A stretch of 64,000 bases of DNA from Bacteroidota bacterium (GCA_016124735.1 WGMZ01000031.1:52147-116146), one strand, 5' to 3'. Positions 7,463 through 45,447 are shown, counted from the first letter of the stretch. Made by a program: numbers and translations. The notes: generated from the letters alone by a model not told the origin.

Positions 7463-9904
7463 TTGAACCAAACATACAATCCCATGAAATCCAAGCTTCA
7501 ATCTTTTGGAATGGGCATGTTATGCCTGTTCTTTTGCTCTTCCAGTCATGCCCAAATCAGCATAAACTCATTTGGAAATTCAGGAGCTTATTCCCAGAAT
7601 TTCAATTCGCTCGACAGCAGCACCGCAACTTCTCCCTGGACCAATGATTCTACCCTGAATGCCTGGTATTGCAACGTGTCTTACTACACGGGAAACAGTG
7701 GAACGATTGCCACGGGTGGACTATACAGTTTTGGAAATGATGCGGACAGGGCACTGGGCAGTATTGCCTCTTCATCCTTGGATTTGATTCAATATGGGGT
7801 GCGAATTAAAAACAATACCGGCAGCGATGTAGATCGAGTCTATCTTCGATTTACAGGAGAACAGTGGAGACATGGAAACAGTGCGGCGGGTCTTCAATCT
7901 ATGCGAATCGCTTATGCCGTTGCCGATTCATTTACCGGATTACCCGGTAGCACAAATGAATGGAGCCCTCTTCAATTTTGGTCACCGCAGTATGGTCAAT
8001 CGGGGACATCCTTAGATGGGAACCTGGCCTCAAATCAGATGATTGTAGCAGGAGCAATGGCGGTTGACCTAAGCGACGGCAAGGAGCTTTTTATTCTATG
8101 GAGTGATACAAACAATTCCGGTTTCGATCACGCACTTGCCATCGACGACATCCTGATTGCATTTTATAGCGGGGTTTCCGACTTGCCAGTGATTGGATCG
8201 ATTGGGAAATACTATTCCGACACCGAAATGATACTTCCGGCGGATTTATTGATTGATTCACTTTGTTTCCTGGATTCGAATGGAGTATTAGGGGTCGGAA
8301 GTCACCAATTAACCTTATCCGGAGACATTTACGGTGAAGGAACCTATAAATCCAACAAATCATCCAAACTCAAAATGACAGGTAATGGTTTCTCGAATCC
8401 ATTTTATTCCAATCACGATTATGCTGACAGTACGAATCGCTTTGCGGGTCTTGAAGTGAATTTCAATCTTGCTGGCGACACATTTGAATTGGGTAACGAA
8501 CTTCAGGTATCAGGAGTTGTTGCTGCGGTTTCGGGGGAAATTGTCACCAGGGGAAGTCTACTTCTGGTGGCCGAAGATGAAACCACCTATGGGCAAATTA
8601 CCGGAAACGGAAACATTACAGGATTTGTCTCAATGGAAATGCTGGTGCCTGGAAACTCTCCAGGCTGGCGAAATATCTGCGTTCCTTTCGATACGGTTAC
8701 GGCAGGACAATTAGGGAATGAAGTGATTCTGGCAACTTCAAATGGCAGTACCATTGGTGGCATAGCCTATCAGCAGAATTTATTTTCCTGGTCTGAGAAT
8801 TCTGCTACCTGGAATGTGTTTTCCAGTGCTTCAACTTCGCTCTATGGAAAGGGCATGAACATGTATCTATACAATCCGGATAACACACGAATAAAGCTTG
8901 CTGGTCTTTACCAAAACAGCAGTTTGAATCTAGGCACTTTAAGTAAAACAGGATCAGTTTCGAATGTCAGCGGTTGGCATCTGGTTCCCAACCCATTTCC
9001 ATCTGGTATAAATTGGGACAGCCTCAGCAAGCCAGCAAGCTTGTCTGGAAGCTATTCACTCTGGAGCACTGCAGACGGAGGATATCGAAGCTGGAATGGA
9101 ACGGTTGGGGATGCTGGTTCGTTTATACCACCTATGCATGCATTTTGGGTTTACGCCAGCAGTACGCTTTCGAGTGATTTTATAATCTCATCTTCTTCCC
9201 GAACTACTGAAAAGCAAAATCATTTTGGAAAAAATGAGGGAGAAAGAAACTGCATTGAGCTCGAAGTGAAAGCGCCTTATGGAACATATAGAGATCAAGT
9301 AATTTTATATCAGGATAACAGCACACATCCATTAAAAAGCTCCATTACTGAAAAAAGGTTTGGCTTGGATGAGGCCCCCAATATTTGGTTTGTTCAGGAA
9401 CAGGTGAATGCCGGTATACTTCCTGTACCGGATTCCCTGCTTCCCGGTGATTATCCCTTAGGATTCTATTCTTCTATCTCAGGAAAATTCCGTGTAGCAA
9501 GCACGATGCTCAACTGGGATCCACTCTATGAGGCCTGGCTTATTGATAAGAAAAACCAGCTTAGACATCGACTGGATTCCGGAGACTTTACCTTCACATA
9601 TACGAACGGAGAAGCCAAAACCGATCGATTTGTTTTGCGAATTGAAAAAAGTATTACTACTTCATTGTCCAAGCCTGATGTACCTGAAGTGTATCTGTAT
9701 TCGGCCAATGGCAATCTTTACCTGATTTCAGGGTATTCGAATTATCACTACAAACTGTTTGGTATCAGCGGAAAACTGATGGCAGAAGGTCGTTCGGAAT
9801 CCAAAGAAACAATTATGAAAGGAATTGAACCCGGCATCTACTTTATTGAATGGTCAACGGCCACTCAAAGCGGAACTATTAAGTGCGTGCATCATCCGTA
9901 TTAA
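7463..9904 (+). CDS. Secreted hypothetical protein with a T9SS C-terminal sorting domain
   Basis: This 813-aa protein has a signal peptide (MGMLCLFFCSSSHAQ). Its C-terminal about 80 aa (YLYSANGNLYLIS ... GIYFIEW ... TIKCVHHPY) resembles a T9SS CTD. No catalytic domain was recognised. Confidence 0.6.
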   Translation: MNQTYNPMKSKLQSFGMGMLCLFFCSSSHAQISINSFGNSGAYSQNFNSLDSSTATSPWTNDSTLNAWYCNVSYYTGNSGTIATGGLYSFGNDADRALGSIASSSLDLIQYGVRIKNNTGSDVDRVYLRFTGEQWRHGNSAAGLQSMRIAYAVADSFTGLPGSTNEWSPLQFWSPQYGQSGTSLDGNLASNQMIVAGAMAVDLSDGKELFILWSDTNNSGFDHALAIDDILIAFYSGVSDLPVIGSIGKYYSDTEMILPADLLIDSLCFLDSNGVLGVGSHQLTLSGDIYGEGTYKSNKSSKLKMTGNGFSNPFYSNHDYADSTNRFAGLEVNFNLAGDTFELGNELQVSGVVAAVSGEIVTRGSLLLVAEDETTYGQITGNGNITGFVSMEMLVPGNSPGWRNICVPFDTVTAGQLGNEVILATSNGSTIGGIAYQQNLFSWSENSATWNVFSSASTSLYGKGMNMYLYNPDNTRIKLAGLYQNSSLNLGTLSKTGSVSNVSGWHLVPNPFPSGINWDSLSKPASLSGSYSLWSTADGGYRSWNGTVGDAGSFIPPMHAFWVYASSTLSSDFIISSSSRTTEKQNHFGKNEGERNCIELEVKAPYGTYRDQVILYQDNSTHPLKSSITEKRFGLDEAPNIWFVQEQVNAGILPVPDSLLPGDYPLGFYSSISGKFRVASTMLNWDPLYEAWLIDKKNQLRHRLDSGDFTFTYTNGEAKTDRFVLRIEKSITTSLSKPDVPEVYLYSANGNLYLISGYSNYHYKLFGISGKLMAEGRSESKETIMKGIEPGIYFIEWSTATQSGTIKCVHHPY

Positions 9905-9949: not shown

Positions 9950-11269
9950 TTGACCGTGGCCAAATCATACTGGTTAAAATCCGGATTTTTTACCCTTGCC
10001 GAGCGTGGAAGCTCCCTGCTATTGGGTGTCGGTACCTTTATGATGCTGGCCCGGGCTCTGCCCAAGGAAAGCTATGGTACCTGGATGCTGTACCTTTCTG
10101 TTTACTCGTTTATTGAAGTGGCCCGTATCGGATTGCTCAAGAATCCGCTTATCCGGGCCGCTCAGGAAAGCGGAAATTCCTTTGCCAAAACACAATCCAC
10201 TGCGCTGGTTATCAACTTGATTAGCGGACTACTGGTTGCCCTTGTTTTGTATATAAGCCGAGGAGCCATTGCGGCCAGCTGGGGTGCTTCAGGTCTGGTG
10301 GGCCTGTTAGAGGTATATGCTTATGGTTTCATCCTCTTTTCACTGTACTCGCATCTGGATTTCATCCAGGCAGCCAATATGAATTTTCGCGGGCCTTCGC
10401 TGGCCATAATCGGAGAAAAACTGGTGTTTTTCAGTGGGGCTGCTTACCTCTTTTTTTCACAGACCATACTCCCAATGCACTTTCTGGCATACATGCATCT
10501 TGCCTCCATTGCAGTGGGAATTCTGGTTTCATTAAGTCATGGATGGAAATACCTGCGTTTATGGCGAAAACCAGAATCGAAATTGGCGGCCTCCATGCTG
10601 GCTTATGGTAAATATACGCTGGGGACCAATCTTGGAGCCATCCTGTTAAGAAATATTGATACCTGGATGATAGGCTGGCTGATGAATCCCGCTGCCGTGG
10701 CAACCTATAACGTGGCCATGCGGGTTGCCAATTTATTCGAGACTCCTACCCAGGCATTGGCCCAGATACTTTTTCCAAAAGCCATTCAGGAAATCAAAAA
10801 AGAAGGAAGTTCCGCCTTTAAACGTTTGTATGAAAAATCGGTGGCCCTGATTCTCATCCCCACCATTCCATTTACGCTTTTCGTTTTGATTTTTGCCTCT
10901 CCCATAGTCGACCTTCTTGCCGGCAAGGGATATACGGGTTCGGCAGAAGTATTGATGCTGACGATGCTGTTCGGCTTACTCATCCCTTTCAATAAGCAAC
11001 TGGGAATCTTAATGGATGCAGATGGAAAGGCGCGAACCAATATGCTGTTTGTGTTACGCAATGCCATTATCAATACCCTAATCAATTTTACCCTGATCCA
11101 TGAATATGGTGTAATGGGCGCGGCGATGGCCACCCTCCTTACCTTTGTGCTAAGTCTCTTTATTGAACAACGCTATGCGAAAAGACACTACGGAGTTCAG
11201 TTTATTGGGATATTCAGAGAGATGAAGAATTGGGGGATGAGAATTATGAATAAACGGGTCGGGGAGTAA
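9950..11269 (+). CDS. MOP-superfamily polysaccharide/oligosaccharide flippase (Wzx-like)
   Basis: The 439-aa protein is polytopic (about 12 TM) and matches the general pattern of polysaccharide-biosynthesis (Wzx/MurJ-type) proteins. It sits immediately upstream of the exosortase gene. Confidence 0.6.
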   Translation: MTVAKSYWLKSGFFTLAERGSSLLLGVGTFMMLARALPKESYGTWMLYLSVYSFIEVARIGLLKNPLIRAAQESGNSFAKTQSTALVINLISGLLVALVLYISRGAIAASWGASGLVGLLEVYAYGFILFSLYSHLDFIQAANMNFRGPSLAIIGEKLVFFSGAAYLFFSQTILPMHFLAYMHLASIAVGILVSLSHGWKYLRLWRKPESKLAASMLAYGKYTLGTNLGAILLRNIDTWMIGWLMNPAAVATYNVAMRVANLFETPTQALAQILFPKAIQEIKKEGSSAFKRLYEKSVALILIPTIPFTLFVLIFASPIVDLLAGKGYTGSAEVLMLTMLFGLLIPFNKQLGILMDADGKARTNMLFVLRNAIINTLINFTLIHEYGVMGAAMATLLTFVLSLFIEQRYAKRHYGVQFIGIFREMKNWGMRIMNKRVGE

Positions 11270-11325
11270 GCATGAAACTACTCCTTTAACACTATTACGT
11301 TCCCAACTTTTATTACCTTTCAGCT

Positions 11326-11913
11326 ATGCCAGACAACTCGTTAAAAACACTAATTCAAGAAAATAAAGGGGTCTTATTTTTTCTCCTGCGCTTTCTTGGA
11401 GCATTTAGCGCGTTAAGTCTAATGTATGCCATCTGGGTGGAGAGTTTTGGAGATCAGGCTGACTCATTTTCCTGGTTTGTTGGGAAAAACCTCAATTTCC
11501 TATTTGCTGGAAAATTGAAGCTAGATCAATTGGAAGGTCATGCAGCTATTGCCGTTGATTACAATGGGAGCACTGCGGTGAGTTTGTTTGAAGGATGCAA
11601 TGGAATGGCTGTAATGATTCTCTTTTTTGCTTTTGTATTCGCGTTCAAAGGCAGGTGGGGTGACTTAGTCTGGTTTGTTCCGTTCGGGTTGATTGTCATT
11701 CATCTTTTCAATCTTGCCCGCCTGGCTTTATTGATTCAAATGGCAGCGAATAATAGTCCACTTTTCCACTTCATGCATAAATACCTGTTCTCTCTTATCA
11801 TCTATGCTGCTGTATTTGGACTGTGGATCATCTGGGTAAAGAGAGCGAGTCGCTTTGTGAAACAGCTCAAAACAAAGAAACAAACTATTCCAACAGAAGG
11901 GTCAGACGAATAA
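11326..11913 (+). CDS. xrtF: Exosortase family protein, XrtF-type
   Basis: The protein is about 195 aa and multi-TM. The segment EGCNGMAVMILFFAFVFAF ... IVIHLFNLARLALL fits the short Bacteroidetes XrtF exosortases, which carry a conserved Cys-Asn core. Assignment is by recognition, not by search. Confidence 0.55.
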   Translation: MPDNSLKTLIQENKGVLFFLLRFLGAFSALSLMYAIWVESFGDQADSFSWFVGKNLNFLFAGKLKLDQLEGHAAIAVDYNGSTAVSLFEGCNGMAVMILFFAFVFAFKGRWGDLVWFVPFGLIVIHLFNLARLALLIQMAANNSPLFHFMHKYLFSLIIYAAVFGLWIIWVKRASRFVKQLKTKKQTIPTEGSDE

Positions 11914-12538
11914 TTAGATTGTTGAGATTCTCAGTTTTTAAAGGCTGAAGCTGATACATGGCGGCAATTTTGTACCCTTTGATGCAGCCTTTCCTAATAT
12001 CGCGTAAAAAGTAGAGCTCTTCCCTGAATTGATTTAAACCACTTTCCCCATTGCTTAGGTTAAACTGATAATGGTACTCTGTATTCAATCCAATATGACT
12101 TTCCCCGATTTTTCTATCCAAAACAAAATGAGCTCTTGTCCGCAGAGAGGTATGTGTTTCATAAAAGCGTTCGTCGAGTCGACCGTGCAGATGAATGGTA
12201 TACCTATCATTCAACGAATGCTTCCAATCCAAATCCTGCTGCAACCTATATTCCCATGAAAGGGATTTGGCTGTATTCAGCGCATTCCAAACCGTTTGAA
12301 ACCGGGAAAAACTCAATCCCGTTTGAATAGATTTACTCGCTTTGTAGTTCAATCCTGCTCGGAACATATACTGGCTCGTATGAAAATTACTCATATAAGG
12401 GCGAAAATCGGACTCTGCATAGATGGATTTATTCTCCGTTATAGAGCGGCTACCATAAAGGCGAAACCAAACCTGGTGCTGCTGGGAATAGGTCCATCCA
12501 GAAAATAAAAGGGAAAGGAAAAGAAAAACGAACTTCAT
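11885..12538 (-). CDS. Predicted outer-membrane beta-barrel protein (DUF2490-like)
   Basis: The N-terminus is a signal peptide (MKFVFLFLSLLFSGWTYSQ). The sequence shows alternating amphipathic beta-strand character with aromatic-rich segments. It overlaps the xrtF 3' end by 29 bp in convergent orientation. Confidence 0.4.
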   Translation of the reverse strand: MKFVFLFLSLLFSGWTYSQQHQVWFRLYGSRSITENKSIYAESDFRPYMSNFHTSQYMFRAGLNYKASKSIQTGLSFSRFQTVWNALNTAKSLSWEYRLQQDLDWKHSLNDRYTIHLHGRLDERFYETHTSLRTRAHFVLDRKIGESHIGLNTEYHYQFNLSNGESGLNQFREELYFLRDIRKGCIKGYKIAAMYQLQPLKTENLNNLIIRLTLLLE

Positions 12539-13079
12539 GGATTGTCCCGATGTTTGCCAAGGTGTAGGATTCGCTGAAAGCGCGTCAAATTTTCTTTATT
12601 TTTCCCAAAGATTAGGTATGCCGAGTCATCTTTTTCAATTTAGTATCCGTCAACTATTCTGGATTGCTTTGGCATTTGCAGGATGGGGATTTGTCTATGT
12701 TTTTCAGGAATTCGACTTCACCCGGTTTGAGTTTAGAATCGGCCAGTATGCGGAGGGTCATATTCCGGACGGAGAATCCTGGCGCTTCGCCGTGAACAAG
12801 AGCCTTCGTTTCTTTTTCAATGATTTGTTTTCCCTTTTGTTCATTTACGGATTATTCCAAAACAGGAATTATATCCGAATCGGTTTGGTGGTGATGGCCT
12901 TCGGGTTATTTCTTCTCTTACCCGTTTATCTGACTCTGGCCATTCTATACAAGGATTCTATCTTCCATCTATTGACCTTTTTGCACCGCATCACCATGAA
13001 TCCCTGGATGATGCTTTTATTGGTTCCTGCTTTTTATTTTATTCAGATGAAGAAGGATCAGGATGATTCCAGGGAGTAA
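12537..13079 (+). CDS. Exosortase F system-associated membrane protein (putative); the true start is possibly the internal Met near 12618
   Basis: This small polytopic membrane protein lies beside xrtF and fits the known pairing of XrtF with the 'exosortase F system-associated protein'. The N-terminus is uncertain. Confidence 0.4.
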   Translation: MDCPDVCQGVGFAESASNFLYFSQRLGMPSHLFQFSIRQLFWIALAFAGWGFVYVFQEFDFTRFEFRIGQYAEGHIPDGESWRFAVNKSLRFFFNDLFSLLFIYGLFQNRNYIRIGLVVMAFGLFLLLPVYLTLAILYKDSIFHLLTFLHRITMNPWMMLLLVPAFYFIQMKKDQDDSRE

Positions 13080-14583
13080 CCCCAAAACCTTCATGATAAA
13101 TCTTGAGGGTGTCGGGCACACATGGAGTAGGTGTATCGCCGCAATATATACAACTTTCAGGACGATAATAACTGTGAGGAGCGTTCACCCAATCCGGATT
13201 AATCACAGGATATGGAGTGGGGCTGATTAACATGGCAAGTGAAACCTTAAAACTATCTCCGCAGTGTAAGAGATGAAGGTTGGACTTTCCTGAAGTATTC
13301 ATCCATACCATTATGGCCAAGGCCATTCCAAAAACAGGGAGTTGGAAATTTTTCAGGATGCGTTGGGAAAAATCCTGCTGAAACATAAGCATGATTCCCG
13401 CAATTGCCAAACCCAGTCCGAAGCGATAATTCGGCGCCAGAACCACCCATAGTAGCAAAAATATTAAAGACCATACCGACCAGAACGGAACCCTACCTAC
13501 CTTCTCCTTTCTGAGGGTAAAAAGAAGATAGATCCCGGAACCCAGGATTAAAGCATTCATGATGACCTTGTAAGTCTTTAGATGAAACAAAGCCAAAAGG
13601 CGCTCTGTCCAGGAGAAGTCAGCGTTTAGCCAATCTTGGGCCGAATATCCTACGCCATAAATTTCCGCCAGTACTCCCCTACTAAATGCCAGTAGCATTT
13701 CATTTGGAAGGGTGTATGCTGCAGGCCACCAGCTGCTAGGCAATGGGAACAATACGTGTCCACTCAGTACCTGATTTTTCATCATCCATACGATTCCCAT
13801 CAGGACTGGCAACAGCGACCATCGAATAAATGATGATCTGTATTTTAACAAGGGATAGCAGCCGGCAAGGACCAATGAAAAGGCGGTGGCTTTCAGGCCA
13901 ATGATCAGAACCAGGAGCCATGACCAATCCTTCATCCTTAATTCTTTATGGTTTAGCAAGATGAAGCCTGTGAGTAAAATGATTGGTAAGTCGGGCGAAG
14001 GAGCGTTGAGAAATGGAGCACTCAATACCATTGCAAATGAAATTCCTGAAAGGGAGATTCCCTTTCGAAGCCCATCCACGCAAAAGATGAAAAGCAAAAG
14101 CCCATTAAAATTCCATATCCGGTCTGGAGTAATGGAATCCCAATAAAAGAATGAGGACAAGAGATGCCAGGATGAACCCAGTCCTAAACGAATATTCCAT
14201 TGGGCCAATCCTTCTTCAAATCCAAAGTCAGAAAACCATTTAATGCTCTGCAGGTAATAGGACAAATCATCATTAATCCATACCGGCAAGGATGAAATAA
14301 AGAGACAAGCCAAAAGTATCACGGTTTCCTTCCATTGCGCTGTTTTCAAGGAAAAAGCGCCATGCCTTCGATCCCGTATTTCGAGAAGGACAGCGCCAAG
14401 AAGAAAAAGGAGAAAAAAACGTGCGGGAAGGAAAAAGGACCAAAGATGTCCCAGCAACAGCCAGGCAGAGAGTCCGGAAACAAAATTGAGAAACAGCTGA
14501 TCTTCCCGATAGGTTCCTATTAACCGACTTAGCCTTAGGCTTGCCAGAAATAATAGCGTCCATGCAAGGAGGAGAAGCAGCAT
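13039..14583 (-). CDS. Large polytopic membrane protein of unknown function with a Cys/Pro-rich C-terminal tail. It is the last gene of the minus-strand polysaccharide operon.
   Basis: The 514-aa protein has more than 10 predicted TM helices. The C-terminus reads YYRPESCIYCGDTPTPCVPDTLKIYHEGFGVTPWNHPD. No family was recognised. It is co-directional and nearly contiguous with the upstream genes. Confidence 0.5.
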   Translation of the reverse strand: MLLLLLAWTLLFLASLRLSRLIGTYREDQLFLNFVSGLSAWLLLGHLWSFFLPARFFLLFLLGAVLLEIRDRRHGAFSLKTAQWKETVILLACLFISSLPVWINDDLSYYLQSIKWFSDFGFEEGLAQWNIRLGLGSSWHLLSSFFYWDSITPDRIWNFNGLLLFIFCVDGLRKGISLSGISFAMVLSAPFLNAPSPDLPIILLTGFILLNHKELRMKDWSWLLVLIIGLKATAFSLVLAGCYPLLKYRSSFIRWSLLPVLMGIVWMMKNQVLSGHVLFPLPSSWWPAAYTLPNEMLLAFSRGVLAEIYGVGYSAQDWLNADFSWTERLLALFHLKTYKVIMNALILGSGIYLLFTLRKEKVGRVPFWSVWSLIFLLLWVVLAPNYRFGLGLAIAGIMLMFQQDFSQRILKNFQLPVFGMALAIMVWMNTSGKSNLHLLHCGDSFKVSLAMLISPTPYPVINPDWVNAPHSYYRPESCIYCGDTPTPCVPDTLKIYHEGFGVTPWNHPDPSSSE

Positions 14584-17124: not shown

Positions 17125-18273
17125 TCAATTGTTCTGCAATTCCAAAATCTTTTCTACAATTCTGGAAGCAGTTTTACCATCCCAAAGAGGTGGAACTTCT
17201 CCTTTTTTCCAATTTCCTTCGAAGAGTCTTTTCATGGCCGGTGCAATAGCCTTAGGATCTGTACCAAGCAATTCATTTGTTCCCATTTCAATAGTTTCAG
17301 GACGTTCTGTATTGTCGCGCAGGGTCATGCAGGGAATACCCATTACGGTGGTTTCTTCTGTGATTCCTCCTGAATCGGTGATTACAGCCTTACTATTTTC
17401 TACCAGGTAATTAAACTCCAGATAACCCAGTGGTTCTACCATTATCAATCTGTCATGGTGGATGTCTAAACCTTCCAGTATCTGACGCGTCCGGGGATGC
17501 ACCGGAAAAATCAATTTTAAGGATTCTGAATTATCAATGATTGCCTGAATCAAGTCCTTCAGCTTTGATTCTTCATCGACGTTAGCCGGACGATGCAAGG
17601 TCATGACAATATAGTTCCCTTTTTCCAGATTTTGTTCCTTCCAGCATTGCGGTTGGGTAAACCTGGGTCTCTGCTTTAATAGCGTATCGATCATGGTATT
17701 CCCTACCAGATGAATTTGATCTTCTCTGGCGCCAAGTTTCCTCAGATTATTATTTGCCAACTCTGTGGTGGTATAGAAGTGGTCTGTGATGCTGTCTGTA
17801 AGCATGCGGTTAATTTCTTCCGGCATGGTCAAATCATGCGATCTGATTCCCGCCTCCACGTGTGCAACTTCTATGTTTAGCTTTTTCGCTGCAATGGAAC
17901 AGGCCATGGTAGAAGTCACATCTCCAACCACTAAAGTGAGATTACAGGGCTTTTCCAACAATAATGCTTCATAGGCTACCATAATTTTTGCCGTTTGCTC
18001 AGCCTGGGTCCCCCCGCCAGCACCCAGGTTGACATCCGGCTCTGGAATTCCCAACTGCTCAAAAAATTGTTCTGACATATTCCGATCGTAATGCTGTCCG
18101 GTATGAACCAATCGGTATTCGAGTTTATTTCCCGTTTCCTGTGCGTCTTTGATTGCATCAATAATTGGAGCAATCTTCATGAAATTAGGGCGTGCGCCGG
18201 CGATAAGGTCTATAAGGTAATTCATACTTTGGTTTGAAAATAAAAAAGTAGAGATATACGAGAAATCAAACAA
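17125..18273 (-). CDS. wecB: UDP-N-acetylglucosamine 2-epimerase (non-hydrolysing)
   Basis: The segment IAGARPNFMKIAPI ... VHTGQHYDRNMS ... is characteristic of WecB/MnaA and the length is 382 aa. Confidence 0.9.
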   Translation of the reverse strand: MFDFSYISTFLFSNQSMNYLIDLIAGARPNFMKIAPIIDAIKDAQETGNKLEYRLVHTGQHYDRNMSEQFFEQLGIPEPDVNLGAGGGTQAEQTAKIMVAYEALLLEKPCNLTLVVGDVTSTMACSIAAKKLNIEVAHVEAGIRSHDLTMPEEINRMLTDSITDHFYTTTELANNNLRKLGAREDQIHLVGNTMIDTLLKQRPRFTQPQCWKEQNLEKGNYIVMTLHRPANVDEESKLKDLIQAIIDNSESLKLIFPVHPRTRQILEGLDIHHDRLIMVEPLGYLEFNYLVENSKAVITDSGGITEETTVMGIPCMTLRDNTERPETIEMGTNELLGTDPKAIAPAMKRLFEGNWKKGEVPPLWDGKTASRIVEKILELQNN

Positions 18274-19531
18274 TCATCCCTGCAGCCACCGTTTCATTTG
18301 TGGCTTCATCTACTAAAATTAAACTGCCGGTATTTCGGTTTTTTCGATAAGCATCTTTTAATACTGCCTTTGTGGTGCGAAGTTTTGCCCGGAAGATGTC
18401 GTTCATTCCGATATTTTTATCTGACTCGTCCTTGCTCAGGGAATTAATATTCAACTTATATATCACCTCCTTCACCATGGTTCGCATTTCATTACTTGTA
18501 TGGCGAAGGATATATTTTGAGGATGGATTCAAACCTCGGTTATTCAACCAGCACATCATCAATTCCAGGTCTTGGGTCGAATCTGGCTGATTATTAGGTT
18601 TTGCGAGCATATCTCCTCTGCTTACATCGATATCATCGTCGAGAGTCATAGTAACAGACATTGGAGGAAAAGCCTCGGACACTTTCTCTTCTCCAACCAT
18701 GATTTCTTTGATTTTCGATTTAAACCCACTCGGCAGAACAATGATCTCTTCGCCTGGGCGAAAAACCCCTCCGTCGATGCGACCGGCATAACCCCGGAAA
18801 TCGTGATATTCCTGCCTATGGGGACGAATTACCGTCTGAATCGGGAACCTAGCATCCAGGTGATTATAATCACTTCCAATATGAATATTTTCCAGCGTGT
18901 GCAGTAAGGTTGATCCTTCGTACCAGCTGGTTTTTGTGGAACGATTCACCACATTATCCCCTTCCAGGGCTGAAATAGGAATAAACCGAATATCCTGCAC
19001 ATCCAATTTGGAGGCAAAGGCTTCGTATGTTTTTACAATCTCGTTAAAACGTTCCTGGTCGTAATCAACAAGGTCCATCTTATTTACACACACAATAATG
19101 TGTGGTATTTGTAAAAGGGAGGCAATATAACTGTGGCGATAAGTTTGTTCAATCACCCCTTTTCTCGCGTCAATTAAAATCAATGCAAGGTTTGCTGTAG
19201 AGGCTCCAGTCACCATATTCCGGGTATACTGAATATGCCCGGGAGTGTCTGCAATAATGAATTTTCTGCGCGGTGTGGCAAAGTAACGGTAGGCCACATC
19301 GATGGTGATGCCCTGTTCTCTTTCGTCCTTGAGTCCATCGGTAAGTAAGGACAAATCAATATGTGCTAATCCTTTTTTCTGGCTGCTACCTTTCACTGCT
19401 TCCAGTTGATCCTCAAAGATGGATTTTGAATCGTACAATAAGCGACCGATTAAGGTACTTTTTCCATCATCTACGCTTCCAGCAGTGGTGAAGCGAAGCA
19501 GCTCCATATCCAAATAACCCGACTGTGTCAT
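18266..19531 (-). CDS. cysN: Sulfate adenylyltransferase subunit 1 (GTPase)
   Basis: The G1 motif GSVDDGKSTLIGRLL is followed by DTPGH, NKMD and an EF-Tu-like domain architecture. It is adjacent to cysD. Confidence 0.9.
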   Translation of the reverse strand: MTQSGYLDMELLRFTTAGSVDDGKSTLIGRLLYDSKSIFEDQLEAVKGSSQKKGLAHIDLSLLTDGLKDEREQGITIDVAYRYFATPRRKFIIADTPGHIQYTRNMVTGASTANLALILIDARKGVIEQTYRHSYIASLLQIPHIIVCVNKMDLVDYDQERFNEIVKTYEAFASKLDVQDIRFIPISALEGDNVVNRSTKTSWYEGSTLLHTLENIHIGSDYNHLDARFPIQTVIRPHRQEYHDFRGYAGRIDGGVFRPGEEIIVLPSGFKSKIKEIMVGEEKVSEAFPPMSVTMTLDDDIDVSRGDMLAKPNNQPDSTQDLELMMCWLNNRGLNPSSKYILRHTSNEMRTMVKEVIYKLNINSLSKDESDKNIGMNDIFRAKLRTTKAVLKDAYRKNRNTGSLILVDEATNETVAAGMIV

Positions 19532-19552
19532 GTTTTGTAATCCAAATAATTG

Positions 19553-20458
19553 TTAAAAATACCCTTGTTTTTTGCGGTCTTCCATTGCCGTTTCCGATCT
19601 TTTATCGTCGGCTCTAGTGCCTCTTTCCGTCATTCGTGTTGCTGCAATTTCGACGATGATATCTTCGAGTGTCGAGGCATTTGATTCAACGGCCCCGGTA
19701 ATAGGCATGTCGCCGCATGTGCGATAACGAACTGTTTTGGTCATTTTCACTTCATCTCCCCGCATATTCAGGTAATCGCTCACTGCGAGCAAAGTCCCAT
19801 TCCTTTCAATGACTTCGCGTTCATGTGCGAAATACAAAGAGGGCAGTGGAATATTTTCGGCAAGAATATATTGCCATACATCCATCTCGGTCCAGTTGCT
19901 AATTGGGAATACACGGAAATGTTCGCCCATATTCTTTTTGCCATTAAAAATGTTCCACAATTCCGGACGCTGATTTTTTGGATCCCATTGTCCAAAATCA
20001 TCCCGATGGGAAAAAAAGCGTTCTTTAGCTCGGGCTTTTTCTTCATCGCGGCGTGCGCCTCCCATTGCTGCATCAAACTTATTCGCTTCAATGGTGTCCA
20101 ATAAGGTAGTTGTTTGAAGTGCGTTCCGGCTGGCATTCAGGCCAGTCTCCTCCGCCACCTTACCCTGGTCGATAGAGTCTTGTACAAGACCCACAACCAA
20201 GCGGGCACCCAAATTTTCCACCAGTTTATCCCGGAAGTCAATGGTTTCCGGAAAATTGTGCCCGGTGTCTATATGCACCAGGGGAAAGGGAATCTTGGCC
20301 GGCCAAAATGCCTTTTTTGCGAGATGCGTAAGCACAATGCTGTCCTTACCTCCGGAAAATAAAATTGCCGGATTTTCAAATTGGGCAAAAACTTCGCGAA
20401 TCACAAAGATGGATTCTGCTTCAAGTTCCTGTAAATGTCTAAGCGAATAATTACTCAT
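19553..20458 (-). CDS. cysD: Sulfate adenylyltransferase subunit 2
   Basis: The PAPS-reductase-like PP-loop SGGKDS is present and the 301-aa length and CysD family pattern fit. It overlaps the cysC start. Confidence 0.9.
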   Translation of the reverse strand: MSNYSLRHLQELEAESIFVIREVFAQFENPAILFSGGKDSIVLTHLAKKAFWPAKIPFPLVHIDTGHNFPETIDFRDKLVENLGARLVVGLVQDSIDQGKVAEETGLNASRNALQTTTLLDTIEANKFDAAMGGARRDEEKARAKERFFSHRDDFGQWDPKNQRPELWNIFNGKKNMGEHFRVFPISNWTEMDVWQYILAENIPLPSLYFAHEREVIERNGTLLAVSDYLNMRGDEVKMTKTVRYRTCGDMPITGAVESNASTLEDIIVEIAATRMTERGTRADDKRSETAMEDRKKQGYF

Positions 20459-21053
20459 TCGTATGGATTCTGGGAATTATAAAATCAATAATATTATTTG
20501 TACAGACTTCTATATTCTGTAAATGGGTTGATACACGAAGTTCAGGATTTTCAGGAATTTCAAATGGCGAGTCGATTCCGGTAAAATTGCTAATCAAACC
20601 TTTCCTTGCCTTTTGGTATAAACCCTTTACATCGCGGCTTTCGCAAACTTCAACAGGACAATCTACATGGATTTCCACGAATGCATAACCAAGTATTTCA
20701 CGCGCCTGAAGGCGATCGCCAGCAAAAGGTGAAATGAAAGCGGTTAATACGACCAGTCCCGCGTCATTCATCAATTTAGCCACTTCTGAAATACGGCGGA
20801 TATTTTCAATTCTTCCTTTTGAGCTAAAATCAAGATCTTTATTCAGTCCGGTTCTTATATTGTCTCCATCGAGCAAATACGTTCGTATTCCTTTATCGGC
20901 CAGTGCTTGTTCCACAAGGTTAGCCAGAGTAGATTTCCCTGATCCTGAAAGCCCCGTAAACCAAAGAGTTTGCGACTTATGTCCGTTCAAACGCTCTCGA
21001 AAAACCCGATCGATCTTATGCTGATGAGGTATAATATGAAGTTTTTCAGTCAT
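20451..21053 (-). CDS. cysC: Adenylyl-sulfate (APS) kinase
   Basis: The Walker A motif LSGSGKSTLA is present and the 200-aa length and APS kinase pattern (LDGDNIR) fit. Confidence 0.9.
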   Translation of the reverse strand: MTEKLHIIPHQHKIDRVFRERLNGHKSQTLWFTGLSGSGKSTLANLVEQALADKGIRTYLLDGDNIRTGLNKDLDFSSKGRIENIRRISEVAKLMNDAGLVVLTAFISPFAGDRLQAREILGYAFVEIHVDCPVEVCESRDVKGLYQKARKGLISNFTGIDSPFEIPENPELRVSTHLQNIEVCTNNIIDFIIPRIHTNE

Positions 21054-22813
21054 GAATATTTGAATAATAACCAGGCCAACACAATTCCTGAATAAATAAT
21101 TGTCAAAGGTAGTCCGAATCGAATAAAATCAATAAAGCGATAATTTCCGGGACCATATACCATCAAATTAGTCTGATATCCGACTGGGGTCATGAAACTG
21201 CAGGAGGCTCCAAACGCCATAGCCATAAAAACACCCGTTAACTCTATATTGGCATGTGTCGCCATGGAAAGTCCCAAAGGAAATATCACAGAAATTGCTG
21301 CTGCATTGGTTATAAACTGGGTTAATAATGTAGTGGCAAAATAAACGAGGACGATAATGCTTCCTTTACCCATGTTGGCACTCCATTCAGATAATCCCGA
21401 ACTCACCCAATCTGCTGCCCCAGAACCAATTAATGCCTGGCTTAACGCCATGGCACTGCCCAGAATGATCAACAAATCCAAAGAAATATTCTTTTTCATC
21501 TGGTCGTAATTGCTCATTTTGAATGCAAGGGTCAATCCAAGCATTAATAAAAGCGTCACGAATAAAGAGTAGAAACCAAATGGAAGTCCTGCAAGAATCA
21601 GGGTGCTACCCAGAAGGTAGAGGTTCTTTTTTCTTTTGGGTAATTCCACGGTCTGACTGAGCTCTGAAACAATGTACAAATCCTTACCCGACCGCGCTTT
21701 TGAGAGAAAAGTCTTTCCTGCAGAAATCAAAAGCAAATCGCCCTTGTCCAGAACTATTTCTCCCAATTTTCCTCTAAGTTTTTCACCATTCCGGTGAATA
21801 GCAATTACCGCCGCATCGAGATTTTCCCGAAATGCATATTCCTTTAAAGTCGCGCCAATCAAGCCCGAATTGGCCGGAATCACACTTTCCATTACCTGCA
21901 TCCCATCTCCGATATCTAATTCGGAATGTGATGGAATTGTAAGTCCCTGAATCTTCCTGACCAATTCCAACACTTTTTCGGGTTCGCCGGCAAAAAACAA
22001 GCGATCCTCTTTTTGAACTCGTTCGTCAGGAGAAACAGGGCTCATGGCTATTTTATTTCGGATAATTTCAATCAGAAAAATCCCATCCAAATTTCGTAGC
22101 CCAGCTTCCTGTATTGTTTTTCCAACCAAAGCCGCTCCGTTTTCCACCTTAGTTTCTACGAGATATTCTTTAAAATTCTCGGTGACTTCGCGGATTAAAT
22201 CCGAATTATCAGGAAGCAACTTCTTAAAAAACAGCAATATATACACAATGCCCCCGATACTTACCAGGACTCCCGGTATCAGAAAGTCCATAATACCAGG
22301 GCTAGCGATTCCAGATTCCTGAATAAAACCAATAAGTATCATATTGGTTGAGGTGCCCAATACCGTAATCATTCCTCCCAATATTGTGGCATAGGATAAA
22401 GGTATAAGTAATTTTGAAGGAGAAACAGAATTCTTCTTCCCCCACTGGTATACGTAGGGAATCATCATAGCGACAATGGGGGTATTATTCATCACCGAGG
22501 ACAAACCTGCCACGGTAATTCCCATGCGAATTAAAAACTGACGGGGACTTCTCGCTCCTTTGTATAATTTATCAAAAGTCCCAACCAGATTAAAATGGCT
22601 ATTGACTGCAGAAGTCAGTATGATCAGCAGGAAAATGGTGATGACAGAAGCATTTGAATAGCCGGCAAGGAACTCATTTACAGGGATGGTTCCGGTAACC
22701 AGTAAAATGGTCGCAGCCCCTCCAAAAACATAAGAAGCTCTCCACCGGTCAATTAATAGAGTGACGATGGTGAGCGCCAAAACGGATAATACGAGTATAC
22801 TATCGGTCGTCAT
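21050..22813 (-). CDS. SLC13/DASS-family anion transporter with two internal TrkA-C domains (likely sulfate uptake)
   Basis: The 587-aa protein has N- and C-terminal polytopic halves separated by a soluble region of about 170 aa with TrkA_C-like character. It is co-operonic with cysDNC and cysQ. Confidence 0.75.
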   Translation of the reverse strand: MTTDSILVLSVLALTIVTLLIDRWRASYVFGGAATILLVTGTIPVNEFLAGYSNASVITIFLLIILTSAVNSHFNLVGTFDKLYKGARSPRQFLIRMGITVAGLSSVMNNTPIVAMMIPYVYQWGKKNSVSPSKLLIPLSYATILGGMITVLGTSTNMILIGFIQESGIASPGIMDFLIPGVLVSIGGIVYILLFFKKLLPDNSDLIREVTENFKEYLVETKVENGAALVGKTIQEAGLRNLDGIFLIEIIRNKIAMSPVSPDERVQKEDRLFFAGEPEKVLELVRKIQGLTIPSHSELDIGDGMQVMESVIPANSGLIGATLKEYAFRENLDAAVIAIHRNGEKLRGKLGEIVLDKGDLLLISAGKTFLSKARSGKDLYIVSELSQTVELPKRKKNLYLLGSTLILAGLPFGFYSLFVTLLLMLGLTLAFKMSNYDQMKKNISLDLLIILGSAMALSQALIGSGAADWVSSGLSEWSANMGKGSIIVLVYFATTLLTQFITNAAAISVIFPLGLSMATHANIELTGVFMAMAFGASCSFMTPVGYQTNLMVYGPGNYRFIDFIRFGLPLTIIYSGIVLAWLLFKYS

Positions 22814-23600
22814 TTCCGGCTTTCACAATAAACCAGGGATTTAACAGGTTTTCCTTGTTATAAGTCAATTCAATACCCGTTTCCGGGTTAAAGACGCGGC
22901 ATCCACTTGCCTTTGCGATTGCATGGCCGGCGGCAGTATCCCATTCCATGGTGGGAGCGAAACGGGGATAAATCTGAGCCGTGCCTTCCGCCACCATACA
23001 TATTTTCAATGAGGATCCGATGGATATCCATTCTATCTCCCCATGTTTTATTCTTAATTCTTGAATAAAAGACTCTGTTTCCCCCGAAAGATGGGACCTG
23101 CTACCAACAACAGTGTAAGGTTCACCTAGTGGTTGAGCAGATATTTTCACTTTCGAGGCATCAATTTCTTCCCATCCCGATTCTGGGTGAACTTTTTCGG
23201 CTTTATAACTCATTCCCGCATCCCCACCCCAATAAAGTTTCTTTAGTACCGGAGCATATACGACACCCCATACGGGTGCGCCGTTTTCTATCAATGCGAT
23301 GTTAACCGTAAACTCTCCATTTCTTTTGATGAATTCCTTGGTACCATCCAGGGGGTCCACCATCCAAAATCTTTTCCATTCACTTCTGTTCTCGTAGCAA
23401 TCCCTGCTCGATTCTTCACTTAGGACAGGAATACCGGTATCAGACAGATATTTAATAATTACCTGGTGTGCCTGCTCATCTGCCTCGGTCAATGGGCTTT
23501 TATCCTCCTTAAGCTCCACTTTGAATTCGTTTTCGTACACATTTAAAATTTTCCTGCCGGCTGCTAAGGCTGCTTCTAATGCTTGACGAAATTCACTCAT
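22800..23600 (-). CDS. cysQ: 3'(2'),5'-bisphosphate nucleotidase (PAP phosphatase)
   Basis: The inositol-monophosphatase-family metal-binding motif WMVDPLDGTKEF is present and the length is 266 aa. It lies adjacent to the PAPS genes. Confidence 0.8.
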   Translation of the reverse strand: MSEFRQALEAALAAGRKILNVYENEFKVELKEDKSPLTEADEQAHQVIIKYLSDTGIPVLSEESSRDCYENRSEWKRFWMVDPLDGTKEFIKRNGEFTVNIALIENGAPVWGVVYAPVLKKLYWGGDAGMSYKAEKVHPESGWEEIDASKVKISAQPLGEPYTVVGSRSHLSGETESFIQELRIKHGEIEWISIGSSLKICMVAEGTAQIYPRFAPTMEWDTAAGHAIAKASGCRVFNPETGIELTYNKENLLNPWFIVKAGNDDR

Positions 23601-23826
23601 TTGTAATGTGCTCTAATTTTAAATTCTGCTTCATTCCCATTGAATTTGAGGGTGTTCAAAGGTACTTAAGTTGTTCGGTAATTTCCTGTTTCTGAATGAT
23701 TTACTAAATTATCCCTTTCCATTGCAAACACGAATTCGGACATAGGTCAAATTGACTGATTGCCAAATGAGCATGCATTGCCAACATATTCTAATCAGAC
23801 GCAGAAGAATGCCTGTCCCAGAATTC

Positions 23827-24483
23827 TCAGACCGTAATGTCCGACTCCACCAATTCACCAGCACCAATGAAGGCCTTGTTTCCAACCAGAGTTGCTTTAA
23901 TAATTTGCGCTCCGGTTCCTATATACACATCATCGCCTATTTGTGCTCCACCACTGATCAAAACTCCCGACATGATGGTGCATCTGTTCCCAATGATTGC
24001 GTCATGATTTATTCCAACATGGAGATTCAACAAATTAAAACTCCCAATTTGAATATTCGTGGTAAGGATGACTCCTTGCTGAATGATATTACCTTGCCCC
24101 AAAAAAATATTTTCCGGATTCTGAAAGGAGACACCAGAATGAATAAGATTAGGAAAATAAAGATGAGTGTTCCGCGGTTTTCCCGAATCATCAATCAATT
24201 CATGCAGAATCTTAGACTTGAAAACCGGGTTGCCAATTGCGATAAAAACATCCGTATCTTCTTCAATATTAGCCAAATCAGTCAGAGATCCTTCTACTTC
24301 ATGGCCATTGATGTAGGTCCCCTTCTGCATTCCATCGTCAAAGAAAGAAATTATTGCATAATTGCCTCGTTTTTCGCATTTCAAAAGCGCGGCAACTTCT
24401 CTGCCCAATCCACCTGCTCCGACTATTGCTGCTTTCATGCCATGTGGAATTTCAAATCCAACGATATTTTCCTGAGTCTGCAA
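23827..24483 (-). CDS. NeuD/PglD-family hexapeptide-repeat sugar acetyltransferase
   Basis: The N-terminal Rossmann-like stretch KAAIVGAGGLGREVAALL is followed by C-terminal left-handed beta-helix hexapeptide repeats (IGNRCTIMSGVLISGGAQIGDDVYIGTGAQI). Confidence 0.7.
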   Translation of the reverse strand: MQTQENIVGFEIPHGMKAAIVGAGGLGREVAALLKCEKRGNYAIISFFDDGMQKGTYINGHEVEGSLTDLANIEEDTDVFIAIGNPVFKSKILHELIDDSGKPRNTHLYFPNLIHSGVSFQNPENIFLGQGNIIQQGVILTTNIQIGSFNLLNLHVGINHDAIIGNRCTIMSGVLISGGAQIGDDVYIGTGAQIIKATLVGNKAFIGAGELVESDITV

Positions 24484-24513
24484 TACAAGTTAATTTCCTC
24501 CGAGCTTTAGTGA

Positions 24514-25470
24514 TTATTTATTATCGGATTTGTTCAATACCAGTTTAGGTAATACCAATTTTAAGGTAGTGAATAAAACCAGTAGTGACATTAGTATAAT
24601 CAGGCTGATTTGTAATTTGTTCACACTGTAAATCAGAATGAGATTGATTGTAACCTGAGCAATGCCATATATCACTGCCACCAGAACATGAGGCCAAGCC
24701 AATTCATTAGCCAGTACCTGGTAAACATGCAGGCGGTGTGCTTTAAAGATATTTTCACCTCGAATCAATCTTTGAATAATTGTCAAAATGGAATCGGCAC
24801 CATACACAGAAAAAAACAGAATATATTCCCAACTTCTCGTTTGAATCATGAGTAGCAGCATCATAAAGGCCAGGATATAAGCCATCCCTACACTTCCAAC
24901 ATCCCCAGCGAAGGTTTTCGCTTTTTTTCGGACATTAAATAGTGCGAACACCAAATTACCCACCAGTAAAACCCGAATTAAGTCCGGGTCAATGAATTGA
25001 ATATCCAGATTGATTAAATAGTAAGATGCCAGAATAGAGGTAGAATAGAAAACTGTGATTCCATTAATTCCATCCATAAAGTTAAAGGCGTTAATCCAAC
25101 CGATAACTAGTACATAGGCAAGAATCCAATAGTGCCAATGAAAAGAAAAGATATTCAACTGGAGCAGAATTAAGCTTACACTAATGACGTGCATCAATAT
25201 TCTCAAGCGCCGGGAAAGATCAAATCTATCATCCAAAAAACTGATGCCGGCGATAAGAACCAGTCCACCTACAAACCATGAATATTGCATTCCAAACAAG
25301 GCATACCACGCAATAACGGCGAGGGTAAAAACAATACCTCCACCACGAATCGTTATAGAACTATGTGAGCTTCTCTCATTTGGCTTATCAATGATGTTGA
25401 ACTTGTCAGCCAACTTGAAATATCCCAGGATCAGGAGTAATAAGAGAATAAAAATGAGGAAATAAGTCAT
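24514..25470 (-). CDS. Polyprenyl-phosphate N-acetylhexosamine-1-phosphate transferase (WecA/WbpL/MraY family), the initiating transferase
   Basis: The protein is 318 aa and polytopic. The family signature NAFNFMDGINGI and DD-containing loops are present. Confidence 0.8.
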   Translation of the reverse strand: MTYFLIFILLLLLILGYFKLADKFNIIDKPNERSSHSSITIRGGGIVFTLAVIAWYALFGMQYSWFVGGLVLIAGISFLDDRFDLSRRLRILMHVISVSLILLQLNIFSFHWHYWILAYVLVIGWINAFNFMDGINGITVFYSTSILASYYLINLDIQFIDPDLIRVLLVGNLVFALFNVRKKAKTFAGDVGSVGMAYILAFMMLLLMIQTRSWEYILFFSVYGADSILTIIQRLIRGENIFKAHRLHVYQVLANELAWPHVLVAVIYGIAQVTINLILIYSVNKLQISLIILMSLLVLFTTLKLVLPKLVLNKSDNK

Positions 25471-26396
25471 TTTGAATTAAAGCTTTGTATGGTTTCCTTC
25501 AGTCCGTCACGAGCCGCAATAGGCATTCGTTCCCAACCAAGAGCAAGTTTAATTTTATCATTCGACACCAAGTAACTTTCCGTCAATTTTTGCAGTCTGG
25601 CAGAATTGAGTGGCAATTTAAGCATGTCTCCAGCCTTAGCCATAAACTGAATTATGGAAGGTGAAATATTCCATATTTTCCCTTTCTTCCCTATACTTTC
25701 ACCAATTAATTTGACCAAATCGTTGGTGGATAAATCTTCATCATCTGCAACATTATATGTCCCAGCTGGAAAATCATCCATTTCGCAAATATTCAGAATT
25801 ACCTCAGTCAGATTTCCTACCGATAAATAGGATCTTCTGTTTTCGAATGCTCCGAGTGGATAGGGCATTCCATTTTTCAGGAAACTGTATAGCAGGTTGA
25901 GATTTCCTTTGTTCCCAGGCCCGTGAATCATGCAGGGACGTAAGATAATCAAGCGTTTTCCTGCTGGAAGTGTTTTTGATTGAAGATAACTTTCTGCCTC
26001 GCGTTTAGAAGCTCCGTAAGGATTATCCACTTCAAAAGCATCTGTTTCTTTGAGGATTCCTTTCACAGAGGAAGCAACCGCCTTTACTGAACTCATGAAT
26101 ATAAAATGAGTTGCTGTTTCATCTGCCATAAAAGCTTCGAACACTTTTTCTGTGAGTCCGACATTTATCAAGTTATAATCGGAAGCCAGACTTTTGTTCT
26201 TCAAATCATGAGCCTTTCCTGCCAGATGTATCCATGCTTTGGCATGAATATTTGCGGCATCCAATTCGTCCCAGGTAATGGTTGCCGGATAAGATTTACT
26301 CCTCGAAATACCCATGACTTTATGCCCGGTAGCTACAAGTTTTAGAGCCAGATTCTTACCAACAAATCCGCTGATGCCAGTTATGACTATGTTCAT
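25467..26396 (-). CDS. NAD-dependent nucleotide-sugar epimerase/dehydratase (short-chain dehydrogenase/reductase, SDR, fold)
   Basis: The N-terminus is MNIVITGISGFVGKNL, with a YxxxK-type catalytic region. The length is 309 aa. Confidence 0.7.
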   Translation of the reverse strand: MNIVITGISGFVGKNLALKLVATGHKVMGISRSKSYPATITWDELDAANIHAKAWIHLAGKAHDLKNKSLASDYNLINVGLTEKVFEAFMADETATHFIFMSSVKAVASSVKGILKETDAFEVDNPYGASKREAESYLQSKTLPAGKRLIILRPCMIHGPGNKGNLNLLYSFLKNGMPYPLGAFENRRSYLSVGNLTEVILNICEMDDFPAGTYNVADDEDLSTNDLVKLIGESIGKKGKIWNISPSIIQFMAKAGDMLKLPLNSARLQKLTESYLVSNDKIKLALGWERMPIAARDGLKETIQSFNSK

Positions 26397-27577: not shown

Positions 27578-27590
27578 TTTTCTTTTTTAA

Positions 27591-35888: not shown

Positions 35889-35944
35889 ATAAGTTAATTA
35901 TTGAATTCGGTTTTGTTTGTTATCTTTTGCTTTGATTGAAAAAA

Positions 35945-37081: not shown

Positions 37082-37115
37082 GGTCTTCGGTGGAATGGCC
37101 TATAAATAATTCTTT

Positions 37116-38297: not shown

Positions 38298-38385
38298 GCG
38301 CTATATTAAATTTATTCAGAAATAAATAAGGACGTACCATTAGAGGCCCCGCCTTGTTTCAGGAATTTGGGTAGTAGTGCTTCTG

Positions 38386-39943: not shown

Positions 39944-39944
39944 C

Positions 39945-43367: not shown

Positions 43368-43410
43368 AATATACTCTTTGCTGCTAATAAATAAATGAGT
43401 ATTTCACACC

Positions 43411-45221: not shown

Positions 45222-45447
45222 GAAACGATTTTATTTTACTAAAAGGATTCGCATTAGGTACGCAGGCTACACAGCTTCGCCACGTCAGTCCCATACCTGA
45301 ATGCTTATTGAGTAAAAAAACTACTCAAATATGCTCGAATTTTCAATAAATGCAAAACCGCGAGATTACTTTTAATATTTTCTTAATGTTCCAAAAGTCC
45401 TTTGAACGCTCGCTGCTTGAAGTCTCTCCTAATCTGTTATGTTTGAA

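Follow-up and report, generated by a model that had tools for sequence, protein, structure and literature searches.

The best-described relative of the system considered here is the Fjoh_1448/Fjoh_1449 pair of Flavobacterium johnsoniae, a short exosortase of the XrtF type and its membrane partner. Deletion of xrtF or of Fjoh_1449 abolishes the formation of biofilm and zorbs and lowers the colonization of sand, and mutants in type IX secretion (the T9SS) as well as in a DegT aminotransferase show the same biofilm-null behavior (PMC10936215). The targets of XrtF were called unknown in 2024 and again in a 2025 paper (PMC12188702). Here we analyze an xrtF locus in a 64-kb stretch of DNA from a Bacteroidota bacterium (WGMZ01000031.1:52147-116146; hereafter, the window), where xrtF (11326..11913, plus strand) and the gene for its partner lie next to an exopolysaccharide (EPS) cluster. 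A first-pass annotation of the window had described the function of XrtF as experimentally undefined, a view that the F. johnsoniae knockouts have made outdated (PMC10936215). Overall, we judge it somewhat better than an even bet that this is an XrtF system, part of a conserved gene unit, that acts on PID-CTERM-like proteins with a glycan or glycolipid as the probable acceptor.

The F. johnsoniae pair passes the same TIGR04128 and TIGR04127 models as the window pair. Both XrtF proteins are core-only enzymes of ~175–195 amino acids (aa) with the invariant Cys, Arg, and His, and both belong to two-gene Bacteroidota systems. Flavobacterium XrtF differs in sequence (~30–38% identity to the window enzyme) and in score (~208 bits as compared to 114 bits), and the window differs from 32 Flavobacterium loci in its DUF2490-split pair, its histidine kinase and response regulator, its MOP flippase, and its polysaccharide island. 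XrtA (EpsH)/PEP-CTERM of Proteobacteria belongs to the same superfamily, follows the same logic of a tripartite C-terminal signal, and likewise has EPS loci, AsnB-like genes, and genes for sugar modification among its genomic associations (PMC7468200). Unlike XrtA, XrtF is much shorter, lacks the extra N-terminal transmembrane (TM) segments and the EpsI domain, and needs a separate partner; its candidate substrates are near-bare signals of 55–70 aa, whereas PEP-CTERM substrates are larger Ser/Thr-rich proteins.

Archaeosortase A of Haloferax volcanii, with its PGF-CTERM substrates, has a homologous catalytic core and is the best-characterized model, in which cleavage of the TM anchor is coupled to lipid attachment. 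It differs in being archaeal, in its motif, in its known substrate, an S-layer glycoprotein, and in having no known partner protein. PorU of the T9SS performs surface-attachment transpeptidation in Bacteroidota onto a Wbp/Vim-derived amino sugar, and T9SS-type and Wbp-like genes recur beside xrtF; PorU itself is an unrelated outer-membrane protease of the gingipain family, and its signal is a folded C-terminal domain (CTD) of ~80 aa rather than a TM anchor. In the case of XrtX/PID-CTERM (NF046081/NF046080), mini-proteins of sister lineages pass the PID-CTERM model and XrtX is the second-best hidden Markov model (HMM) for the window enzyme; the window enzyme differs in falling under the XrtX cutoff and in having a TIGR04127 partner. 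We take PID-CTERM to be paired with XrtX at NCBI, as the consecutive accession numbers would have it.

The xrtF product, a polytopic membrane protein of 195 aa, scores 114.3 bits against TIGR04128 (cutoff 90), its best-scoring exosortase model, and 44.3 bits against the exosortase/archaeosortase signature TIGR04178 (cutoff 23). The first-pass annotation of an XrtF-like exosortase is borne out by these matches. The XrtX model NF046081 gives 103.1 bits, under its cutoff of 170. All nine XrtF-type enzymes scored (9/9) fall below that cutoff at 100–120 bits, and close relatives with PID-CTERM neighbors score 101–113 bits. A 163-aa version of XrtF proposed by the gene caller was rejected, as the 195-aa start at 11326 fits both the model, from residue 10, and the homologue alignment. 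In an alignment of 24 XrtF homologues no substitution occurs at E89, G90, C91, R132, or H151, and conservation at N92 is 90% or higher. The Cys, Arg, and His of exosortases and archaeosortases are presumably the catalytic residues, an assumption we carry over from the archaeosortase literature. By analogy, XrtF is a putative inner-membrane cysteine transpeptidase that would use C91, R132, and H151. Its AlphaFold2 (AF2) model has a predicted local distance difference test (pLDDT) score of 91. All relatives are from Bacteroidota, and these, an identical partner protein in a MAG of that phylum (see below), and the T9SS CTD proteins of the window place the host in Bacteroidota.

The partner, an exosortase F system-associated membrane protein of 153 aa (12618..13079, plus strand), reaches 57.4 bits against TIGR04127 (cutoff 35), the model with which the first-pass annotation had proposed to search it. 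The identity and the 3′ end of this small polytopic protein were correctly called, and its start, put at 12537, was not. For the first 27 codons of that open reading frame (ORF) no relative has an equivalent, and the HMM aligns only from residue 65 onward, so we place the start at Met28 (12618). A 100%-identical partner in an NCBI ‘Bacteroidetes bacterium’ metagenome-assembled genome (MAG) is already named ‘exosortase F system-associated protein’, and since the NCBI pipeline already names the XrtF pair, the window module alone adds little. It is a genuine XrtF system, ordinary as a member of its family and set in surroundings that are rearranged yet informative.

The partner has ~4–5 TM helices, with five helices in the AF2 model (pLDDT 87.5). 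An alignment of 21 homologues contains 40 invariant columns, including an FLHR..NP motif, and the conserved polar residues comprise Q, D, N..R, N-D, and F-L-H-R-x-x-x-N-P. A polar pattern like this one is met more typically in enzymes or in subunits that bind a substrate than in passive scaffolds. The longer string F-L-H-R-x-T-M-N-P-W is strictly conserved, and the invariant polar residues Q, D, N, R, and N-D are membrane-embedded. An ‘FH..F[ML]H[KR]’ string in the partner resembles the H151 region of XrtF, a resemblance without statistical significance. The idea that the partner is a diverged exosortase paralogue was rejected (hhalign probability 0.15%).

The gene neighborhoods of XrtF relatives carry the argument for a glycan connection. 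Close homologues (59–74% identity) came from metagenomes and MAGs only, on contigs (L081–L093) that represent eight lineages including the window. The distant set consists of 80 loci from species-representative genomes (30–42% identity, all XrtF-type), 48 of them Cytophagales-type and 32 from Flavobacterium, and the sugar-gene probe set included DegT, PglD, PglF, and Bac_transf. The five distant enzymes that were scored all reach the XrtF cutoff and fall short of that for XrtX, and the partner gene lies directly downstream of xrtF wherever it is detectable (60/80 distant loci). Sugar genes stand beside the xrtF pair in 8/8 close lineages, and a GFO orthologue (62–76% identical) occurs within ~10 kb of xrtF in 8/8. 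In these lineages the sugar genes are convergent and downstream of the pair, with a LIC_10190/DUF8201 gene in 5/8 and cysNDC in 3/8; PglD-like, ATP-grasp, Bac_transf, and DegT genes occur variably. The arrangement is tighter in the Cytophagales-type (non-Flavobacterium) loci, which come from Cyclobacteriaceae, Chryseolinea, Ohtaekwangia, and related groups. In 45 of these 48 (L038 8400–19000 and 44 other loci among L002–L078), xrtF and the partner gene sit inside a same-strand amino-sugar operon with gaps under 100 nucleotides (nt), in the order pglC-like, pglD-like, xrtF, partner, degT, large T9SS protein, mini-gene, pglF-like.

A linkage between XrtF and glycan genes that goes beyond coincidence is supported for these two clades, and not for Flavobacterium, the one genus with genetic data. 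The glycan connection proposed in the first-pass annotation is supported on these counts. Its tie to sulfation specifically is not, as cysNDC is nearby in only three of the eight close lineages; the association is with nucleotide-amino-sugar and glycan genes generally. There is a published precedent for such a connection in the speculation that exosortases join the new C-terminus of a substrate to an amino-sugar-type compound, a sugar modified with an amino acid, that the neighboring Wbp/Vim/AsnB genes produce (PMC7468200). This idea fits the neighbors seen here, as GFO, dehydrogenase, DegT, acetyltransferase, epimerase, and AsnB genes recur beside xrtF.

Candidate substrates were found in the same neighborhoods. 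Three close lineages encode a protein of 55–56 aa adjoining xrtF, e.g., MKKFILLALFVGIGYVANAQPANPTNPVPLDGGISLLVAAGAAYGVKKYRSSNKV. In it, a signal peptide is followed by a short linker rich in Pro, the motif PVPLDGG, a TM helix, and a tail of basic residues. The mini-proteins beside xrtF (L081, L082/83, L084–86) score 43–49 bits against the PID-CTERM model NF046080 (cutoff 26). PID-CTERM mini-proteins of sister lineages, 55–70 aa in length, are encoded at L081 9763–9930, L083 9812–9982, L084 1251–1418, and L103 596–765. A second form carrying ‘VP[IL]xGIE’ was present in 21/21 Cytophagales-type loci that reach pglF. This motif scores below every NCBIfam sorting-domain cutoff, PID-CTERM included, and an HMM of the ‘VP[IL]xGIE’ proteins cross-detects the PID-CTERM proteins with E-values of 3e-6 to 3e-4. 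A reverse scan of metagenomes with the back-translated motif returned 20 matches (L094–L113), all of this mini-protein design. In four of the contigs (L102, L103, L105, L106) the mini-gene directly follows a gene for a protein like the secreted one of ~806–813 aa that the window encodes upstream of its flippase (7463..9904, plus strand). The order in L103 is 813-like protein, mini-gene, terminator hairpin, and then a MOP flippase 87% identical to that of the window. Several long contigs have the 813-like/mini-gene pair but lack xrtF over the surrounding 5–9 kb, so the linkage is frequent and not obligatory. A literature search found no mention of PID-CTERM or XrtX and no description of the mini-proteins. 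One contig of this set (L109 1870–2298, minus strand) has a PID-CTERM tail on a larger, Pro/Gly-rich protein of at least 143 aa that adjoins Wza/Wzc export genes, which puts this sorting signal directly beside EPS export.

The mini-proteins are plausible XrtF substrates. A more specific proposal, which we put forward tentatively and at rather less than even odds, is that XrtF substrates are ‘bare sorting signal’ pre-proteins of 55–70 aa, that a Pro-rich product of ~10–20 residues, left after cleavage by signal peptidase and XrtF, is coupled by XrtF to a glycan or glycolipid that the conserved MOP flippase flips, and that the window is a natural variant with its enzyme and partner uncoupled and its local substrate gene lost. 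Such a pre-protein would comprise a signal peptide ending in A-x-A|Q-P, a linker of 8–20 Pro/Gly/Asp/Asn residues, the motif P-x-P-[LI]-[DTSG]-G-[GI], a TM helix, and a Lys/Arg tail. It would be co-encoded with xrtF, the large T9SS-type protein, and the amino-sugar pathway, in two motif variants, namely PID-CTERM in the clade of the window and the uncatalogued ‘VP[IL]xGIE’ in Cytophagales.

The mechanism that we consider most likely is drawn by analogy from the PEP-CTERM/exosortase and PGF-CTERM/archaeosortase systems. XrtF and its obligate small polytopic partner would form a transpeptidase complex in the inner membrane. The complex would recognize the tripartite tail of a PID-CTERM-like protein (motif, TM helix, and basic cluster), cleave off the membrane anchor, and pass the new C-terminus to an acceptor. 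The acceptor would probably be a glycan or glycolipid that the amino-sugar enzymes encoded alongside make and the neighboring MOP protein flips, and the product may contribute to the assembly of the surface matrix and of biofilm. In the window genome this scheme would operate with a pair that DUF2490 has separated and with the local mini-substrate gene of the sister lineages missing.

Several observations, in this paragraph and the two that follow, weigh against this reading. The published data on XrtF are confined to knockout phenotypes (PMC10936215). Structural comparison of XrtF and of the partner gave no informative neighbor that would support the mechanism. Many of the metagenome mini-genes are separated from any xrtF by more than 5 kb, and 0/32 Flavobacterium loci have sugar genes or mini-genes within 10 kb. 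In the window itself, the EPS cluster and the xrtF unit are on opposite strands. The first-pass annotation had placed the exosortase module beside the EPS locus, and adjacent it is; as the EPS cluster is wholly on the minus strand (13039–48732), the xrtF unit forms a separate, convergent transcription unit outside the operon. These strand relations and the Flavobacterium result would also be expected if the XrtF pair were a housekeeping envelope pair and EPS islands merely inserted at this spot. The island content differs between lineages, and in L092 the pair abuts an M16 peptidase gene and pyrH, as though the island were a variable insertion. For Flavobacterium, the 0/32 count goes part of the way toward the refutation that the first-pass annotation had allowed for, i.e., a housekeeping pair found at unrelated loci, which does not describe the other two clades. 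Those two XrtF clades independently keep amino-sugar neighbors (the same operon in 45/48 loci; in the close lineages, GFO in 8/8 and the flippase in 5/8), and the xrtF and DegT aminotransferase mutants of F. johnsoniae are alike in phenotype. We therefore regard coincidental adjacency as improbable.

The mini-gene is also missing where it might have been sought first. No PID-CTERM-like ORF was found in the 64-kb window by regular expression, by three HMMs, or by a generic scan for signal peptides and TM tails, and none was found in the 7 kb upstream or the 10 kb downstream of it. The search for a cognate C-terminal sorting signal that the first-pass annotation had suggested hence came back empty over the window and ~17 kb of flanks, and any substrates must be encoded elsewhere in the genome. 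The PID-CTERM motif is missing from a small ORF at 54404–54610 (minus strand) that does have a signal peptide and a TM/basic tail, and we discarded it as a candidate substrate. This 68-aa ORF overlaps the start of a 222-aa ORF (54603–55271) and by eye has a CcmD-type look, unconfirmed by HMM.

Lastly, the pair is split. The partner gene is on the same strand as xrtF, 704 nt downstream, with the opposite-strand DUF2490 gene between them, so it needs a promoter of its own. None was convincingly predicted in a scan upstream of the partner, although the sigma-70 promoter and terminator scans returned fewer matches than shuffled controls and are unsuited to Bacteroidota promoters. Upstream of the partner start we noted, by eye only, a sequence close to the −7 element of Bacteroidota (TAttTTTc, 12597–12604).

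The intervening gene (11885..12538, minus strand) encodes an outer-membrane beta-barrel-type protein with an N-terminal signal peptide and matches PF10677 over residues 22–172 at 58.6 bits (gathering threshold 29.8). All four genes named in the first-pass annotation were located where it had put them and pass curated thresholds, and the order MOP flippase, xrtF, partner, with DUF2490 between the last two, was as described. Of the two end overlaps claimed for DUF2490, the one with the 3′ end of xrtF is real (11885–11913, 29 nt); with the corrected partner start, DUF2490 and the partner are divergent over a 79-nt spacer and do not overlap. The split was quantified per locus as the projected distance from XrtF V171 to partner G49. 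It is 843 nt in the window versus 41–279 nt (median 83) in 73 other loci, in all 73 of which xrtF and the partner gene abut or overlap and none of which has a gene between the two. A search of 5.8 billion proteins with the window DUF2490 protein returned itself alone, with no close homologue, and the sole other copy in the neighborhoods (L091, beside cysN) is 25% identical and thus only a distant paralogue. The protein has no 5-residue words in common with other protein clusters, whereas all of its neighbors have 60–90% identical homologues. We looked for an insertion signature around the gene and found no target-site duplication, no anomaly in GC content, and only short repeats at chance level. 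In the DNA alignment of the xrtF 3′ ends, homology stops just past the final TM helix in every lineage, so that the alignment is uninformative on insertion. Because no DUF2490 gene lies between xrtF and the partner in the 73 loci, we judge it to be a lineage-specific interruption, not a component of the module.

An interruption of this kind raises the question of whether the module is decaying, i.e., whether DUF2490 broke the operon, the local substrate gene was deleted, and xrtF and the partner gene are relics. The uniquely disrupted spacing and the failure to predict a convincing partner promoter would both fit, as would the 45 nt that is all the window has between the 813-aa gene and the MOP flippase gene, where L103 carries the mini-gene and terminator. 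However, xrtF and the partner gene on either side of DUF2490 are full length, have no frameshifts or stop codons, and retain every residue invariant among the 24 XrtF and 21 partner homologues. A local mini-gene is also missing in L087, L088, L091, and L092, in which the pair is nevertheless intact and adjacent, so absence of the mini-gene from the locus is common, and mini-genes are often far from xrtF in any case. Decay is, in our view, quite unlikely, and the reading set out above remains the one we prefer.

Upstream, the window xrtF belongs to a conserved plus-strand unit of histidine kinase, response regulator, ~800-aa T9SS-type protein, MOP flippase, xrtF, and partner. The histidine kinase (5595–6722; Pfam HATPase_c/HisKA) and the OmpR-type response regulator (6719–7432; Response_reg/Trans_reg_C) are the upstream neighbors of xrtF in 5/8 lineages (window, L082, L087, L091, L092). 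Between the histidine kinase gene and that of a 1336-aa T9SS protein is an 84-aa cytochrome-b5-like gene (~5298–5552, minus strand), which keeps this position in L082 and L087. The flippase (9950..11269) scores 92 bits against PF13440 (cutoff 23) and 48 bits against PF01943, in agreement with the first-pass call of a MOP flippase. The NCBIfam equivalogs WzxC, TuaB, and MurJ reach only 26–50 bits against cutoffs of 235–580, so we assign it to the superfamily (Wzx-like) without a specific equivalog. The EPS cluster has a Wzx of its own, from which this second flippase is distinct; the flippase gene shares the strand of xrtF and ends 56 nt before it. The terminator scan predicted none between the two, and we infer their co-transcription. 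The flippase is linked to xrtF in 5/8 close lineages and is 73–89% identical in L081, L087, L088, L091, and L103. It is more conserved than XrtF (60–74% in the lineages compared), which is unusual for a Wzx-type protein and suggests a fixed, non-serotype substrate.

The same unit brings in a further explanation, in which XrtF serves the biology of T9SS cargo or of an anchor glycan similar to anionic lipopolysaccharide (A-LPS) and processes a small peptide of that pathway, rather than acting in capsular or sulfated EPS. The conserved neighbors, namely the large T9SS-type protein, the Wbp-like sugar set, and the flippase, would make or modify such an anchor glycan. In F. johnsoniae, xrtF mutants phenocopy porU, porV, porZ, and sprA mutants (PMC10936215), and the Wbp/Vim pathway makes the linking sugar for T9SS cargo (PMC7468200). 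A T9SS-CTD protein is the recurrent upstream neighbor of the mini-gene in both clades; orthologues of the 813-aa protein occur in L087 (47%) and L091 (39%), and it has a domain of ~320 aa in common with the 1532-aa T9SS protein of L038 (E 2e-10). However, its T9SS CTD is weak, at 18.5 bits against TIGR04183 and under the cutoff of 23. The sugar genes are similarly two-sided. The recurrent GFO (WbpB-like), UDP-sugar dehydrogenase, DegT, hexapeptide acetyltransferase, 2-epimerase, and AsnB-like genes resemble Wbp/Vim, but no sugar enzyme of the window reached the cutoff of a Wbp equivalog model. The known T9SS sortase, moreover, is PorU and not an exosortase, and the evidence as a whole is purely associative. 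We consider this explanation unlikely.

Downstream of the pair lies the polysaccharide island. Its first gene in the convergent direction (13039..14583, minus strand) encodes a polytopic membrane protein of the LIC_10190 family (DUF8201), which scores 169.8 bits against NF047510 (cutoff 100) and for which no relative of solved structure was found. The 3′ end of the partner gene overlaps it by 41 nt (13039–13079). A LIC_10190/DUF8201 gene lies at or near the xrtF pair in the window, L082, L084, L091, and L092. Next come, by Pfam and all on the minus strand, a GFO/IDH/MocA oxidoreductase (14607–15614), a UDP-sugar 6-dehydrogenase (15709–17055), and a UDP-GlcNAc 2-epimerase (17125–18273), a Wbp-like enzyme set. 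The remainder of the Wzx/Wzy-type EPS cluster (18266..48732, minus strand, Pfam) contains cysN/D/C, an SLC13-type sulfate permease, cysQ, an initiating glycosyltransferase of family 4 (GT4), further glycosyltransferases, two AsnB-like amidotransferases, and a heparinase II/III-like gene, as well as the genes for Wzx (41095–42345), Wzc (45448–47847), and Wza (47857–48732, minus strand). The label ‘sulfated’ given to this EPS is reasonable in view of the sulfotransferase (30190–31128) and of cysQ, the permease, and cysC/D/N (18266–23600). Between cysQ and the initiating GT4 (23600–24514) are two overlapping ORFs, 23752–24510 (plus strand, 252 aa) and 23827–24483 (minus strand, 218 aa).

A comparison of the window (13039–49000) with L092 and L116 places the island between conserved flanks, the xrtF unit on one side and the M16 peptidase, pyrH, tsf, rpsB, rpsI, and rplM genes on the other. 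In the window genome the M16 peptidase and pyrH genes lie past 63.5 kb. With the flanks nearly contiguous in L092, the island has the behavior of a variable insert at a conserved site beside the xrtF unit.

Outside Flavobacterium, XrtF is repeatedly tied to amino-sugar and glycan genes and to a conserved flippase, and the value of the window is comparative. The mini-genes offer a concrete, testable candidate for the XrtF substrate, and the main interest falls outside the window; Cytophagales isolates such as Chryseolinea would be better models than the rearranged MAG locus. If the proposal is true, XrtF would help to produce a peptide-capped or peptide-anchored surface polysaccharide that is needed for biofilm.

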